From the NCBI GenBank assembly GCA_002328835.1, contig DCWN01000043.1:81740-145739 (forward strand): a stretch of 64,000 bases of DNA, in the 5' to 3' direction. The notes beneath the pieces are model-generated. The model searched no databases, had not been told where the DNA came from, and worked only from the letters and a program-made list of their open reading frames with translations. Numbering within the stretch: the first letter of the stretch is position 1; each line of letters starts with the position of its first letter. Source of the DNA: Acidobacteria bacterium UBA2161. Lineage in GTDB: Bacteria; Acidobacteriota; Vicinamibacteria; Vicinamibacterales; UBA823. Made by a program: the position numbers and the translations under genes. This document shows, one piece after another, positions 10,453 through 51,170 of this stretch.

Positions 10453-11523
10453 CTAGGTTCCGAGGACGCGCGCGATCTCGTCGCGGTCGGGTGTTTCGAG
10501 TGGGCGGGTCTCGCCGTTCACCTCGATCGTCACCCCGGCCGATTCCGGCCGCACTTCGGCAATGGTCTGCGCCGGGATGCTCCGCTCGGCGAGCGCGGTC
10601 ACGATCCGATCGGCGTCGGCCGGTGGCGCCCCGATCAGTAGGGCGCCCGAGGCGATGAGCCGCATCGGGTTGACGTCGAACGGGCGGCAGACCGCGGCGG
10701 TTTCCGGAAAGATCTGGACCCGGCCCGCCTCGAGATGCAGGCCCAGGGACGACGCGGCCGCGAGTTCACACAGCCCGCCGGCCAACCCGCCCTCGGTCGG
10801 GTCGTGCATCGCATGCACGCCGCCCGTGCCCACCGCGGTGCGGGCGGCCGTGACGACGCTGATGCCGGGCTCGAAGAGAAAGTTCTCGGCGCGCGCCAGC
10901 GTGTCGCCGTCCAGCTCCGATGCTAGGGCGTCGTGCTTCTCGCGGGCCAGCAGCGCCGTGCCTTCGATGGCGATGCCCTGGGTGAGCACGATCCGGTCGC
11001 CCACTTCGAGGCCGGTCTTCGTCACCAGGGCGTCGCGCGCCACCTCGCCGAGCAGCTGGCCGACGACAATCGGGCGTTCGAGTCCGGTCGTGATCTCCGT
11101 GTGCCCTCCGCAGACGGTGATCCCGAGCCCCGCGGCGGTGTCATGCACGTCGCGCATGATGTCGTCGACGAGCCTTGCGGTCGTGGCGTGCTCGGGCAGC
11201 AGCAGCACGATCGACAGCCAGCGCGGCGTGGCGCCCATGGCGGCGATGTCGTTGGCGTTGACGTGCACCGCGTACCATCCGATCCGATCCGTCGCGAAGG
11301 TGATCGGGTCAGTGGTGACCACCAGGCACTGGTCGCCGAAGGCGATCGCGGCCGCATCCTCGCCGAGTTGGGGTCCGACGATCACGCGCGGATCGGTACG
11401 CCGGAGTCCGGTGAGCATCGCATCCAGCTGCGCGGCCGGCAACTTGCCCGCCGCGACGCGGGAGCGCTGGTTGTCTGGGGGCACGAGGGCGCCGAGGGTA
11501 CCATCTGCCCCCGGAGTGGTCAA
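10453..11523 (-). CDS. AIR synthase-related protein (PurM/HypE/ThiL superfamily)
   Basis: GEDAAAI, TTDPITF and ANDIAAMGA motifs typical of the PurM-like N-domain. The track start is TTG, so the true start is uncertain. Confidence 0.7.
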   Translation of the reverse strand: MTTPGADGTLGALVPPDNQRSRVAAGKLPAAQLDAMLTGLRRTDPRVIVGPQLGEDAAAIAFGDQCLVVTTDPITFATDRIGWYAVHVNANDIAAMGATPRWLSIVLLLPEHATTARLVDDIMRDVHDTAAGLGITVCGGHTEITTGLERPIVVGQLLGEVARDALVTKTGLEVGDRIVLTQGIAIEGTALLAREKHDALASELDGDTLARAENFLFEPGISVVTAARTAVGTGGVHAMHDPTEGGLAGGLCELAAASSLGLHLEAGRVQIFPETAAVCRPFDVNPMRLIASGALLIGAPPADADRIVTALAERSIPAQTIAEVRPESAGVTIEVNGETRPLETPDRDEIARVLGT

Positions 11524-47167: not shown

Positions 47168-48808
47168 TCATGACTCACGGCGTTTCTTTTCGCTGGCGCG
47201 CTCGGCCTTGAGGCGCTCCAGGTCCACCTCCGAGTGATCCGTGAACCGCATCGCCTCGGCCACGGCGCGATGTCCCGCCTGCTCGGCGATCAGCGTGTGC
47301 ATCGCCTGGCAGACCCGCCGGTAGGCCGGGTGGCCCTGCGGCGCGCTGCGCAGCTCGATGACGTGCATCGCTTCGCGGGCGTTCATCTGCATGTAGAACC
47401 GGACGCGGTAGGCCATGGCGACCGCGTAGGGCGCCACCCGCTCGAGGCCCGCGTCGTGCAGCGCGTCGTGCAACGCGGCCGACGATTCCATGACTTCGCG
47501 CCAGTCGGCCAGCGCTCCGGCCTCCTCGAGCGCCGCGGGTTCGGTGAACCCGTGGGTGGGCGTCAGATCTTGCCACTCGATCGTCAGCAGTCGATGGCGC
47601 TGCAGATCGCGAAACGCGCCGTAGTCCGACAGCACGTCGAACCGATACCCGGTCCGTTCGAAGGCGCGCCCCGGCTTGTGGCGCCGATTGGTCCGGTCGC
47701 CGATATAGGCGGCCAGCACCGCCGCGCGGTCGGCTGACGACATCTGCCGCGCGACGTCGAGCAGTTGATCGTCCGGGAGGTCCGAGGCAGCGTACAGTGC
47801 GGCCGCGACGATCTTCACCTCGCCGTCCGGATCGAAGTCGACCAGGGTCACCTCGTCGCGCGTCGAGCGGTCGATGCCGTCCAGGACGGTGTCGGAGACA
47901 CCTCTGATCGCGGATCGCGTCTCGCTCAAGTACTCGCTCCAGCGACCGCCGCGGTCGGGTCGGTCGACCCGGGTGAGGAACGCCGGGATCACCTTGCGCA
48001 ACTCGGCGAGCATCGCGTCGGCGTAGCGTCGTGCCTCGGCCAGCGGATGCGCGCGCATCTGGAGCAGCATCGCCTCGTAGGCCTGGCCCGAACCGAAAAT
48101 GCCGACGTTCGACTGGGTCGCCGCCGGCAGCAGGCCCCGGAGCGTGTCGAGAGCCTTGGCGCGGATCGCCGCGCGATAGACGCCGTCGGAATCGTCGGGG
48201 TCCTTCGGATGCCGCGCCCGGTAGTAGGCCTGCATCGGTTCGACCCATTGCGCATACACCTCGAACGCCCGGTCCAGGGTCTGGGCGAAGCGCGCGCGGA
48301 TCGGCGTGCCGTCGAGTTCCTCCGGCACCAGATACTTCCAGCGACCGCCCGGCCGATCGGTATACGGCACGTAGCGCGTCGACTGCTCGAGGTAGGCGGC
48401 CAGCCGGCCGCGCTCCAGAATCTTCGTCAGCAGGTTCGACGCGCTCTCGCACGCGACATGGGCGCCACCCAACTGCGCAACCGAGTCGTCGCCGTACTCG
48501 CTAAAGACACGCGTGAAGAGCCGCTCGGCGCGCTCCACGCCGACGGCCGGCGTCTCGGCATCCGCGGCGCCGACGTTGTCCGAGAACTCGTCGAGGAACA
48601 ACCGCCGCAGCGACTTCGCCGACCGCGAGTAGCGCGCGAAGAGGGCGCCCTTGACCACGTCGGGGAGGTTGGTCAGCGCGAAGACCGGTCCGTCGAGATT
48701 CGTGAAGTACGGGGCGAGGCGCCGACGTTCGTCCTCGGTGAACGATTCGGCGGGCGAGCGGGCTTCGGGCACGCCGTATAATAGTCGGGCTGCGCGAGAA
48801 CGCGTCAA
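47168..48808 (-). CDS. thyX: FAD-dependent thymidylate synthase, long (about 540 aa) two-domain form
   Basis: A ThyX-like fold appears twice. The C-terminal half carries QRHRLLT (RHRxxS/T ThyX motif). The track start is TTG; an in-frame GTG at 48772 is an alternative. Confidence 0.7.
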   Translation of the reverse strand: MTRSRAARLLYGVPEARSPAESFTEDERRRLAPYFTNLDGPVFALTNLPDVVKGALFARYSRSAKSLRRLFLDEFSDNVGAADAETPAVGVERAERLFTRVFSEYGDDSVAQLGGAHVACESASNLLTKILERGRLAAYLEQSTRYVPYTDRPGGRWKYLVPEELDGTPIRARFAQTLDRAFEVYAQWVEPMQAYYRARHPKDPDDSDGVYRAAIRAKALDTLRGLLPAATQSNVGIFGSGQAYEAMLLQMRAHPLAEARRYADAMLAELRKVIPAFLTRVDRPDRGGRWSEYLSETRSAIRGVSDTVLDGIDRSTRDEVTLVDFDPDGEVKIVAAALYAASDLPDDQLLDVARQMSSADRAAVLAAYIGDRTNRRHKPGRAFERTGYRFDVLSDYGAFRDLQRHRLLTIEWQDLTPTHGFTEPAALEEAGALADWREVMESSAALHDALHDAGLERVAPYAVAMAYRVRFYMQMNAREAMHVIELRSAPQGHPAYRRVCQAMHTLIAEQAGHRAVAEAMRFTDHSEVDLERLKAERASEKKRRES

Positions 48809-48827: not shown

Positions 48828-49286
48828 ATGCCCCCGACCTTCCATCATTCGATCACCGTCCGCTTCCGCGACTGCGACGAACTGGGACACGTCAACAACG
48901 CGGTCTACTTCACCTACCTGGAGGAGGCTCGCTGGGCCTTCTTTCGACATATCCAGGAGCGGCTCCTGGCGCACGGCTGGAACCAGGGGGCCGATGTGCC
49001 GACCCAGCCGGGGACGATTCTGGCGCACGCCGAGTGTGACTACCGCTCGGAAGCCAAGTACGGCGATGTCCTGGAGGTTGGCGTGACGGTGGCCTCGGTC
49101 GGCCGCTCGAGTTTCGGCTACGAGTACGAAGTGGTCGACGCGGTGACCGGGCGGCTCGTGGCGAACGCCAAGTCCGTGCAGGTGTCGTACGACGCCGCCG
49201 CGAAGCGATCGATTCCCATTCCCGACGCGCTGCGCGCCACGCTCGAGGAGTGCCTCGCTGACCCTGCCGCGCAGGAGTCGAGATGA
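48828..49286 (+). CDS. acyl-CoA thioesterase (hotdog fold, YbgC/4HBT family)
   Basis: Trimmed to ATG 48828. Has VRFRDCDELGHVNNAVYFTYLEEAR, with the catalytic Asp near the N-terminus. Confidence 0.8.
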   Translation: MPPTFHHSITVRFRDCDELGHVNNAVYFTYLEEARWAFFRHIQERLLAHGWNQGADVPTQPGTILAHAECDYRSEAKYGDVLEVGVTVASVGRSSFGYEYEVVDAVTGRLVANAKSVQVSYDAAAKRSIPIPDALRATLEECLADPAAQESR

Positions 49287-49501
49287 CCAAACCGACCGTG
49301 CAGATCTTCGGCAAGGACACCTGACCGTACACCTCTGCCGCCCGTGAGGACTACGGCACGCGAGGCTTCGAAGTCGACTACGTCAATGTCAAGGCTGACG
49401 CCGATGGGTTCCGCCGGATGCTGGAGCATTCCGCGGGGCGGCGCGACGTGCCGGTCATCGTCGACGGCGGCCAGGTGACGATCGGCTTCGGCGGCACCTG
49501 A
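49283..49501 (+). CDS. glutaredoxin-like (YruB/NrdH-type) small redox protein with in-frame UGA at 49322-49324; candidate selenoprotein (U-P-Y-T motif)
   Basis: The ATG overlaps the thioesterase stop (ATGA). The read-through product is MTKPTVQIFGKDT[U]PYTSAAREDYGTRGFEVDYVNVKADADGFRRMLEHSAGRRDVPVIVDGGQVTIGFGGT. It has the Grx layout, with the TGA where the first Cys of CPYC sits and a conserved cis-Pro (VPV). Confidence 0.6.
49325..49360 (+). promoter_or_regulatory. candidate bacterial SECIS-like hairpin immediately 3' of the in-frame UGA
   Basis: There are two alternative folds. Fold 1: CCGUA(49325-29)/UACGG(49352-56) plus CCUC/GAGG. Fold 2: U36-G40 paired with C54-A58, then C41C42/G48G49, giving a CGUGA apical loop about 18 nt after the UGA and a 4-nt bulge. 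Confidence 0.35.
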
Positions 49502-49538
49502 GGGGTCTGACGGCTGCCGGTGGCAGCTGTTCTGCGGC

Positions 49539-50339
49539 ATGCGCTACGAAGTGATCCCGGCGCACAATCCGGGCCCCTACACCGGGGACGGCAACAACAC
49601 CTACTACCTGCCCGGTGCGACACCAGTGCTGATTGATGCTGGCACCGGCGATCCACGCCATCTCGACGGCGTGGCCGCCGCGGTCGCGGCCATGCCTGGC
49701 GGCGCGCCGCTGCAAGTGCTGGTCACGCACGGCCACGCCGATCACGCATCGGGCATCGACGCGCTGCAGGCTCGGTGGCCCGCGGCGACGGCGGCCAAGA
49801 TGCCCTGGCCCGAGCGGGACCGACACTACGCGGCGTCGTGGTCGCCGCTTGCCGACGGCGATTTGGTCCCCGCCGGCGACGGCACACTCCGGGCCGTGCA
49901 CACGCCGGGGCATGCTCCGGACCATCTCTGCTTCCTCGATGAGGTGTCGGGCCTGATGTTCGCGGGGGATCTGGCCGTCAGCGGCGGCACGGTGATGATT
50001 CCCGGGAGCGCGGGCGGCGATCTGTCCGCGTACCTCGCATCGCTCGACCGCGTCCTGAAGCTCGGGCCCGTGCGACTACTGCCGGCGCACGGGCCGGCAG
50101 TCGACGACCCCGCGTCACTCATTCAGAGCTACCTCGACCACCGTCAGCTACGAGAAGACCAGATCCTCGCCGCCCTTCGCGGTGGCGTGGACACCATCGA
50201 CGCCTTGGTGGCGCACGTCTACCCGGGCCTGGACGCCGCGCTCGTGCCGGCGGCGCGCGAGAGCGCGACCGCGCATCTCGAGAAGCTCAGGTCCGAGCAG
50301 CAGATTCGCTGCGAGGCCGACCGCTGGAGCGTCAACTGA
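49539..50339 (+). CDS. MBL-fold metallo-hydrolase (LACTB2-like, with a C-terminal winged-helix-like tail)
   Basis: Motifs seen: THGHADH, HTPGHAPDH, PAHGP. Confidence 0.8.
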   Translation: MRYEVIPAHNPGPYTGDGNNTYYLPGATPVLIDAGTGDPRHLDGVAAAVAAMPGGAPLQVLVTHGHADHASGIDALQARWPAATAAKMPWPERDRHYAASWSPLADGDLVPAGDGTLRAVHTPGHAPDHLCFLDEVSGLMFAGDLAVSGGTVMIPGSAGGDLSAYLASLDRVLKLGPVRLLPAHGPAVDDPASLIQSYLDHRQLREDQILAALRGGVDTIDALVAHVYPGLDAALVPAARESATAHLEKLRSEQQIRCEADRWSVN

Positions 50340-50384
50340 CGCCCGGCGTTCACTGCACTCTGGCTTGTGAAACAATCTGACTCC

Positions 50385-51170
50385 ATGGGCGCGAATCCAA
50401 AGGGCTATGCGAATCCCGAACTGGTCATCGCGCCGAGCGAACTGACCGCGCTGCTGGATTCGACGACTGAGGCAGCCGCGCCCGCCCTCCTCGACGTGCG
50501 TCCCGCCGAGGATTTCGCCGCCGGCCATCTCCCCGGGGCCTGCCATTTCGATCTGTACGGCCTCACCCTGCTCGACACCGATCCTGCGCCGCTCGACGCG
50601 TTCATGTTCATGATCAAGACGCTGCTCGCCAGCCGCGGCGTCTCCGCCGACGCTCCCGCGATCGTCTATGACGACAAGACGGGCATGCGCGCGGCGCGCG
50701 CATTCTGGTTTCTCGACTACTTCGGACACCGCCAGGCGCGCGGCTGGGAAGTGGCCCAAGGCCAGTCCGAACGGTTGGCCACCTGGCGGGACCTCGCCGA
50801 CCGCCTGGGGCAACCTGGCGTCGTGATGCTCGATACACGGACCGACGGCGAGTATGCCGGGACCACGAAGCGCGCGCGGCGCGGCGGCGCCGTGCCCGGT
50901 GCCGTGCACGTCGAATGGACCCGCAGTCTGGACGCCGACGGCGAGTTCAAGCCCGCAGCGGCCTTGCAGGCGATGTACGACGCCGCGGGTGTCACGGCCG
51001 ACAAGGAGATTCTCGCCTACTGCCACGGTGGCTACCGCTCCGCCCACAGCTATCTCGCCCTGCGGCTGCTCGGCTACCCGCGGGTCCGCAACTACGTCGG
51101 GTCGTGGAAGGAATGGGGCGACAGGGAAGACCTGCCGATCGAGCAGCCGGTGTCCGAACCGGCGGGTTGA
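50385..51170 (+). CDS. two-domain rhodanese sulfurtransferase (thiosulfate/3-mercaptopyruvate type)
   Basis: Active-site loop YCHGGYRS in the second rhodanese domain. ATG at 50385; the track start at 50367 is GTG. Confidence 0.8.
   Translation: MGANPKGYANPELVIAPSELTALLDSTTEAAAPALLDVRPAEDFAAGHLPGACHFDLYGLTLLDTDPAPLDAFMFMIKTLLASRGVSADAPAIVYDDKTGMRAARAFWFLDYFGHRQARGWEVAQGQSERLATWRDLADRLGQPGVVMLDTRTDGEYAGTTKRARRGGAVPGAVHVEWTRSLDADGEFKPAAALQAMYDAAGVTADKEILAYCHGGYRSAHSYLALRLLGYPRVRNYVGSWKEWGDREDLPIEQPVSEPAG

Follow-up and report, generated by a model that had tools for sequence, protein, structure and literature searches.

A UXX-star family 1 selenoprotein gene with two in-frame UGA codons, each with a candidate SECIS, in a marine Acidobacteriota contig

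Introduction

UXX-star selenoprotein family 1, for which the name "Distant Grx-like protein 1" is also given, is listed in the table of a 2026 review as a family with a UxxT motif and two selenocysteine (Sec) residues (PMC13188914); in its entries for these proteins, the review cites Zhang and Gladyshev (2008) for family 1 and Haft and Tolstoy (2025), with whom the UXX-star name is associated, for related UXX-star families. Here we describe a gene of this family in a 64,000-nucleotide (nt) stretch of contig DCWN01000043.1 of Acidobacteria bacterium UBA2161 (the window). The gene codes for a 75-residue glutaredoxin-fold protein with two in-frame UGA codons (UGA1 and UGA2), each of which is likely recoded as Sec through its own SelB-type selenocysteine insertion sequence (SECIS), a reading to which we assign a probability of roughly 0.85. 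The gene is not a discovery and defines no new category, because the family and both of its Sec residues are already curated and published.

Several described proteins invite comparison with this product. NrdH and YruB are C-x-x-C dithiol proteins that lack Sec; they are of comparable size and have the same fold, but the product scores far under their family cutoffs. Mammalian thioredoxin reductase (TrxR) has a -Gly-Cys-Sec-Gly tail, with Sec likewise near the C terminus on a flexible Gly-rich segment. However, TrxR is a large flavoenzyme that forms a Cys-Sec selenenylsulfide, whereas here the partner would be Sec or Cys within a glutaredoxin fold of 75 residues. Any likeness is an analogy of proposed mechanism and not homology. 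The selenoprotein glutaredoxin of Clostridium oremlandii (cGrx1, structure 7C10; Kim et al. 2011, as cited in PMC13188914) is also a glutaredoxin fold of ∼75 residues with Sec at the nucleophilic Cys position. Its motif, U-x-x-C, includes a resolving Cys, it contains only one Sec, and its C-terminal helix is normal, whereas the protein described here has U-P-Y-T, neither a resolving Cys nor a C-terminal helix, and a second Sec on its tail.

In the Escherichia coli SECIS, the upper stem-loop lies 11 nt from the UGA and its loop carries G23 and U24 (PMC8659212), the positions contacted by SelB. A Sec-containing thioredoxin reductase with a penultimate UGA has been made in E. coli using the minimal SECIS ggttgcaGGTCtgcacc in the 3′ untranslated region, and for bacterial expression of this enzyme the SECIS must lie 3′ of the stop codon (PMC3834832).

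Results

The gene starts at an ATG that overlaps the stop codon of an upstream 4HBT-type thioesterase gene (ATGA) and runs through UGA1 and UGA2 to a TGA stop (Table 1), with a product layout of MTKPTVQIFGKDT-U-PYTSAARED…GFGGT-U-GV-stop. The frame between the two UGA codons is open for 58 codons, and the GC content by codon position (0.64, 0.48, and 0.85) is typical of coding sequence in a window of 68% GC. A sequence-only reading of this DNA had recognized the overlapping ATG, the in-frame TGA, and the 58 open codons after it with coding-like third-position GC, and it had quoted a translation that proves exact. It had also taken the product to be 72 residues long, ending at 49501, and here it must be corrected: the last triplet of that model is the second Sec codon, the 3′ end of the gene reads TGA GGG GTC TGA (U-G-V-stop), and the open reading frame (ORF) ends at 49510.

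Table 1. Coordinates of the selenoprotein gene, its recoding signals, and adjoining features in the window
Feature	Coordinates	Strand	Basis or remark
4HBT-type thioesterase gene, upstream	48828..49286	+	Pfam 4HBT_2, 3.5e-26; TGA stop overlaps target ATG (ATGA)
Shine-Dalgarno-like AGGAG	49273..49277	+	5 nt before ATG; read from sequence
UXX-star selenoprotein family 1 gene	49283..49510	+	75 codons plus stop; NF041114, Pfam Glutaredoxin, 65 homologous loci
UGA1, Sec14 in U-P-Y-T	49322..49324	+	Nucleophilic position of C-P-Y-C motif; homologue TGA/Cys pairs
Candidate coding-region SECIS for UGA1	49332..49365	+	Sec-form nucleotide constraint; exact fold unsettled
UGA2, Sec73, third residue from C terminus (U-G-V-stop)	49499..49501	+	TGA-X-X-stop in homologues; NF041114 tail
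True stop codon, TGA	49508..49510	+	Sequence; homologous stops
Predicted SECIS hairpin for UGA2	49509..49531	+	10-bp stem 49509-49518/49522-49531; apical loop GGU 49519-49521
MBL-fold hydrolase gene, downstream	49539..50339	+	Pfam Lactamase_B and BLACT_WH; 28 nt past target stop

Profile searches, in which U was replaced by C, place the product in UXX-star selenoprotein family 1. It scores 115.7 bits against the equivalog model NF041114 (cutoff 72) and aligns with profile positions 1 to 70 of 70; without the U-G-V tail, the score is 106.7 bits and only positions 1 to 67 of 70 are aligned. The tail adds 9 bits and fills positions 68 to 70, and because it completes the profile we take the 75-residue frame with both Sec14 and Sec73 to be the true gene. 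The C-terminal arrangement of Sec, two residues, and a stop that defines UXX-star proteins is present, as is the N-terminal UxxT (U-P-Y-T, residues 14 to 17), giving two Sec in total. Every feature compared agrees with the family (profile match, UxxT, two Sec, U-X-X-stop, ∼70 residues, and glutaredoxin fold); we see no substantive difference, and the gene is an instance from a marine, Vicinamibacterales-like member of the Acidobacteriota. An exact-sequence lookup of the product, in variants with X and with C, returned no record.

The product also passes the Pfam Glutaredoxin model (PF00462, 34.1 bits against a cutoff of 22.9), in keeping with the glutaredoxin-type layout proposed earlier. The more specific suggestion of a YruB/NrdH-type protein fails, with scores far below the cutoffs for TIGR02196 (32.3 versus 88.55), TIGR02194 (18.7 versus 85.75), and NF007657 (19.2 versus 131). 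A classical dithiol glutaredoxin was likewise rejected, as the resolving position carries Thr (U-P-Y-T) and the chain ends four residues past G-F-G-G with no terminal helix. Among solved structures, the best sequence match is E. coli Grx3, and in this alignment residue 14 corresponds to the nucleophilic Cys11 of C-P-Y-C, as anticipated for a TGA at the first Cys of that motif, Thr17 to the resolving Cys14, and V-P to the T-V-P of the cis-Pro loop.

Homologous loci were gathered from a scan of species-representative genomes (32 loci) and a metagenome scan (34 more); a first set comprises 33 loci, and counts at residue 14 refer to 65 homologues from several phyla together with the window. The hosts, according to genome records, include Acidobacteriota, Methylomirabilota, Planctomycetota, Anaeromyxobacter, Binatia, Thermodesulfobacteriota, and a distant member of the Dehalococcoidia, among others. 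Residue 14 is encoded by TGA in 58 loci and by TGC or TGT (Cys) in 8, and the earlier proposal of a selenoprotein stands at this residue, although it missed the second Sec. At the DNA level, the C-terminal TGA-X-X-stop is present in all 65 complete loci (64 homologues and the window), no Cys form at residue 73 was seen in these loci, and the tail after UGA2 is conserved as [GAE] followed by [VIF]. The homologous true stop in the first 33 loci is TGA in 16, TAG in 16, and TAA in one. Between the two UGA codons no locus has an extra stop or a frameshift, and the length variants (174, 177, or 180 nt) are all multiples of 3. Variability of alignment columns by codon position in this interval is 0.21, 0.16, and 0.37; because third positions are the most variable, the frame downstream of UGA1 is under purifying selection. 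The window's own organism is represented in four assemblies that are independent of one another: one from a Tara Oceans marine metagenome, another from the European Nucleotide Archive (ENA), and the NCBI metagenome-assembled genomes (MAGs) GCA_002687695.1 and GCA_003453375.1. Sequencing error is excluded because all four are identical over the gene and both TGA codons. Protein databases contain hundreds of relatives, of which the best matches are Cys14 forms ending at "…GFGG[TS]"; relatives are named "glutaredoxin 3" in records of the Joint Genome Institute (JGI) and "UXX-star (seleno)protein family 1" in NCBI (Vicinamibacterales).

There is some variation among the homologues. Five (L012, L025, L032, L036, and L042) have a tail one residue longer, reading G-F-D-G-G-[GY]-U-[AE]-V or G-Y-A-G-G-T-U-E-V; one of these, the Dehalococcoidia member L032, is only 32% identical, has a C-A-Y-S motif, and may be a member of a different UXX-star family (2 or 3). 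In L040 (about positions 820 to 835), the U-G-V tail is followed by a TGA joined directly to a TAG, a tandem stop. All six Anaeromyxobacter-type loci (L015, L022, L024, L026, L029, and L030) have a tRNA-Leu(CAA) on the opposite strand ∼1 kb downstream, and they share flanking genes for a sigma-54-type regulator and a TPR-like membrane protein, a lineage-specific synteny. Both Sec14 and Cys14 forms occur in this clade, and a recent Sec-to-Cys switch is suggested because the Cys forms L022 and L024 retain the CGT-GAG codons discussed below.

A hairpin is predicted downstream of UGA2, starting 11 nt from the U of that codon. Its first 2 nt are shared with the stop codon, and the remainder falls within the 28-nt spacer ahead of the next gene; since the hairpin begins at this distance, the SECIS for UGA2 would lie beyond the true stop. 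Its RNAfold energy of -15.9 kcal/mol is not significant against shuffled sequences (z = -1.58, with 18 of 200 shuffles equally stable), and the evidence for it is comparative. A hairpin with a stem score of at least 15 and a loop starting at +20 to +26 follows UGA2 in 32 of the 33 first-set loci, compared with 5.3% of 12,514 control TGA sites in the same loci, and with a GT-containing loop also required the figures are 26 of 33 and 1.0%. Out of sample, among non-identical metagenome loci, 23 of 26 have such a hairpin and 21 of 26 have one with a GT loop. GGTC forms the loop in 14 loci and GGT does so in 6; the stems, by contrast, are wholly different between loci. When the loci are aligned on the loop, pairing is seen in 97% and 84% of stem cells (versus 26 to 58% with partners slid) and double-sided, compensatory changes are seen at 8 of 8 and 6 of 8 stem pairs, but these alignments are anchored on each locus's own hairpin and so inflate the pairing, which counts against reading them at face value and makes the background rates the fair control. 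The geometry and the GGUC loop agree with the E. coli minimal SECIS ggttgcaGGTCtgcacc, and an untranslated SECIS past the stop has experimental precedent in the E. coli thioredoxin reductase construct (PMC3834832). On these comparative grounds we consider the hairpin to be the predicted SECIS for UGA2, at E. coli-like spacing and with a GGU(C) loop.

At UGA1 the signal is weaker and takes the form of a nucleotide constraint specific to Sec forms. The stretch CCCGTGAGG is almost invariant among them, and the 49 unique Sec forms are near-fixed through …GCC CGU GAG GA…. Arg is encoded by CGT in 47 of 49 Sec forms but in 2 of 7 Cys forms (Fisher p = 1e-4), and GCC encodes the second Ala in 46 of 49 versus 2 of 8 (Fisher p = 6e-5), with the caution that these p-values ignore phylogenetic non-independence; the Glu codon is GAG in 48 of 49 Sec forms. 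CGT makes up only 8.5% of the Arg codons in the window. The residue after the motif is a fixed S in Sec forms, whereas it varies freely after C-P-Y-T in Cys forms. In the best model, an outer stem (49336-49340/49354-49358) encloses a CC/GG mini-stem (49342-49343/49348-49349) and a GUGA loop (49344-49347) whose G and U occupy positions +23 and +24 relative to the UGA; a lower stem is possible at 49332-49335/49362-49365. The modeled pairs form in 94% and 87% of cells, compared with 14 to 57% when partners are slid, and Tyr-Gly and Tyr-Ala variants are one nucleotide apart in the register of the outer stem (4 to 5 bp). On the strength of this constraint, we treat the coding sequence at UGA1 as carrying a probable SECIS, and its fold as a candidate model.

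Features in common with the E. coli fdhF-type SECIS are a hairpin ∼11 nt after the UGA, a loop G-U at about +23/+24, and, in many UGA2 elements, a GGUC loop. Among the differences, no equivalent of the bulged U17 is evident, the UGA2 element is untranslated, and the stem of the candidate UGA1 element is weak and interrupted, with GUGA as its loop. Rfam searches of the whole window at the gathering threshold and of 49250-49600 at a permissive threshold gave no SECIS match; the sole match was to a flavivirus frameshift element (E = 4.7) on the wrong strand, which we attribute to chance. A custom scan of the window that combined an in-frame TGA, coding signal, and a hairpin resembling a SECIS picked out only the gene's own UGA2.

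One ORF in the window, 10453-11523 on the minus strand, is AIR-synthase-like and was examined as a possible SelD, but it scores below the cutoffs for SelD (92 versus 125), HypE (107 versus 252), and ThiL (91 versus 184), and neither the N-terminal Cys/Sec-Lys motif of SelD nor an upstream in-frame TGA is present. Its product is a member of the PurM-like superfamily (AIR-synthase fold), and the ORF adjoins a gene for GTP cyclohydrolase II.

The fold was modeled with AlphaFold2 on a natural Cys14 homologue that is 74% identical and lacks the U-G-V tail (predicted local distance difference test score, 89.6; predicted template modeling score, 0.79). Its topology is β1-α1-β2-α2-β3-β4 with no helix after β4, and the last residues are of low confidence. 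The best structural match of this homologue model is cGrx1 (7C10; template modeling [TM] score, 0.79), and others include an Archaeoglobus fulgidus glutaredoxin, Bacillus cereus BC3987, and NrdH (1H75; TM score, 0.75). The G-F-G-G four residues before the end of the protein aligns with the glutaredoxin GG motif, which lines the active-site groove in established glutaredoxin structures.

The selenoprotein gene lies among genes for the thioesterase (152 aa in the public gene call, with equivalent coordinates), the metallo-β-lactamase (MBL)-fold hydrolase, a tandem rhodanese (50367-51170), and an M20 peptidase. In the MAG GCA_002687695.1, the tandem-rhodanese gene (L068, 3847-4661) is called as two pieces (118 and 153 aa), and the locus no longer stays in ungapped register with the window, which suggests an indel or frameshift in that assembly. 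An antisense ORF of 140 codons (49118-49540, minus strand) overlaps the entire selenoprotein gene; its third-position GC of 0.76 is below that of real genes here, and it has the look of a shadow ORF of high-GC DNA, one by which gene callers could be misled. Farther upstream, a ThyX (Thy1 domain) ORF on the minus strand (47168-48808) is about 534 to 546 residues long, ∼2 times the usual ThyX, with two matched Thy1 stretches, and may be a tandem or fused ThyX.

Discussion

The hidden gene is almost certainly a selenoprotein gene, but several observations weigh against the full reading, in which each UGA has its own SECIS. At UGA1, most of the modeled pairs are invariant and covariation is confined to pair 15-37 in the Tyr-Gly group and to pairs 15-36 and 18-33 in the Tyr-Ala group, RNAalifold returns no consensus structure for the region, and folding 3′ of the codon is no better than that of shuffled sequences (z = +0.84 and -0.15). 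The hairpins drawn at 49325-49360 in the sequence-only reading are thus no more stable than chance and the evidence for an RNA element is comparative only; because the 3′ region of neither UGA significantly beats shuffles, thermodynamics alone supports neither SECIS. A rival inner stem at UGA1 would pair positions 22-25 with 31-34, although covariation is absent from it and in 22 of 25 loci the fifth pair does not form. In addition, selA, selB, selD, and tRNA-Sec are all absent from the 64-kb window, which has no tRNAs and in which 29 ORFs were scanned, and tRNA-Sec was not found in the 32 homologue loci. Because the window is without Sec machinery, we infer the Sec-decoding trait of the host genome from the gene itself.

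As to function, the two Sec residues probably either form a redox-active diselenide or bind metal. In the redox case, Sec14 would act as the nucleophile, the resolving Cys having been replaced by Thr, and Sec73 would serve as its resolving residue, a role proposed because U-P-Y-T has no resolving Cys, there is no C-terminal helix, and an invariant Sec sits on a Gly-rich tail. With the helix absent, the flexible tail past the GG motif could probably bring Sec73 within reach of Sec14, and the pair may alternate between a state with two selenols and one with an intramolecular diselenide (in Cys14 forms, a selenenylsulfide). On this view the protein would serve as a redox shuttle, small and stand-alone, for which the mobile GCUG tail of mammalian TrxR is an analogue. 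We put forward tentatively, at somewhat under even odds, that it is a bacterial diselenide oxidoreductase of this kind, with a reversible Sec14-Sec73 bond, a TrxR-like tail, and two differently built SECIS elements; the diselenide mechanism is one that we purely infer, and the literature instead proposes metal binding for UXX-star proteins (PMC13188914).

In that alternative, the gene and its recoding would be the same, and the protein would be a chaperone or detoxifier whose selenolates bind a soft metal or metalloid (Hg, As, Cu, or Se). The absent resolving Cys and the flexible tail would fit chelation too, and in the window the MBL-fold hydrolase and the rhodanese, a sulfur/selenium transferase fold, lie directly downstream. 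Those two neighbors, however, are present only in the closest relatives. Across phyla no gene neighbor is conserved, including any recurrent metal-resistance or transport gene; the flanking families are lineage-specific, with synteny among close relatives. Since neighbors are conserved only in close relatives, gene context decides neither the redox nor the metal function, but the fold and the active-site position are of the thiol-disulfide oxidoreductase type, and we consider metal binding less likely than not.

The reading of the gene as encoding two Sec residues has also to be set against a single-Sec protein of 72 residues that ends at UGA2, as first proposed. Public records do carry such a product: in the MAGs GCA_002687695.1 and GCA_003453375.1 (L068 and L070, 2745-2963) it is annotated with the same coordinates, three residues short of the family model, and this NCBI product presumably reads through UGA1 and terminates at UGA2. 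UGA is also a stop codon, and some termination at UGA2 is to be expected in vivo. The single-Sec, 72-residue model is nonetheless very unlikely, given the invariant TGA-X-X-stop in 65 of 65 complete loci with its conserved tail residues, the three tail positions and 9 bits contributed to NF041114, the SECIS-type GGU(C)-loop hairpin at the proper spacing after UGA2, and the two Sec listed for the family (PMC13188914).

It is likewise very improbable that the hairpin after UGA2 is an intrinsic terminator or mRNA-stability element and not a SECIS. It is GC-rich, follows the stop codon immediately, and is not distinguished by folding energy alone, which speaks for such a reading; however, no T-run follows it, a terminator scan found nothing, and the next gene begins 8 nt past it on the same strand. 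Across loci the loop is conserved as GGU(C), the stem covaries, and the distance is fixed to UGA2 rather than to the stop. Finally, a Cys-to-stop pseudogene, in which TGC or TGT became TGA in an ordinary glutaredoxin-like gene whose remaining frame is decaying, needs only one substitution and would sit easily with the existence of Cys forms and the lack of Sec machinery in the window, but it is in effect excluded because the same TGA is conserved in 58 of 66 loci of several phyla with intact frames and a third-position excess of variation, and it leaves the Sec-form-specific constraint 3′ of UGA1 and a second conserved TGA with its own covarying putative SECIS to be explained.

The locus also shows how such genes are lost to annotation. 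Prodigal-type calls omit the gene, the two ENA assemblies have no gene call at this position, and JGI calls cut the Cys forms, named "glutaredoxin 3," at the C-terminal UGA. A tool-free reading of the raw sequence can nevertheless recover a genuine selenoprotein. The contrast between Sec and Cys codons at UGA1 is an example of an embedded SECIS constraining protein sequence, in that an element placed inside the coding sequence would lock the peptide to PYTSAARED while retaining G-U at +23/+24. UXX-star family 1 occurs widely among Acidobacteriota, Methylomirabilota, Planctomycetota, and Myxococcota of soil, groundwater, and marine settings, and the expense of a design with two Sec in 75 amino acids implies strong selection for selenium chemistry.

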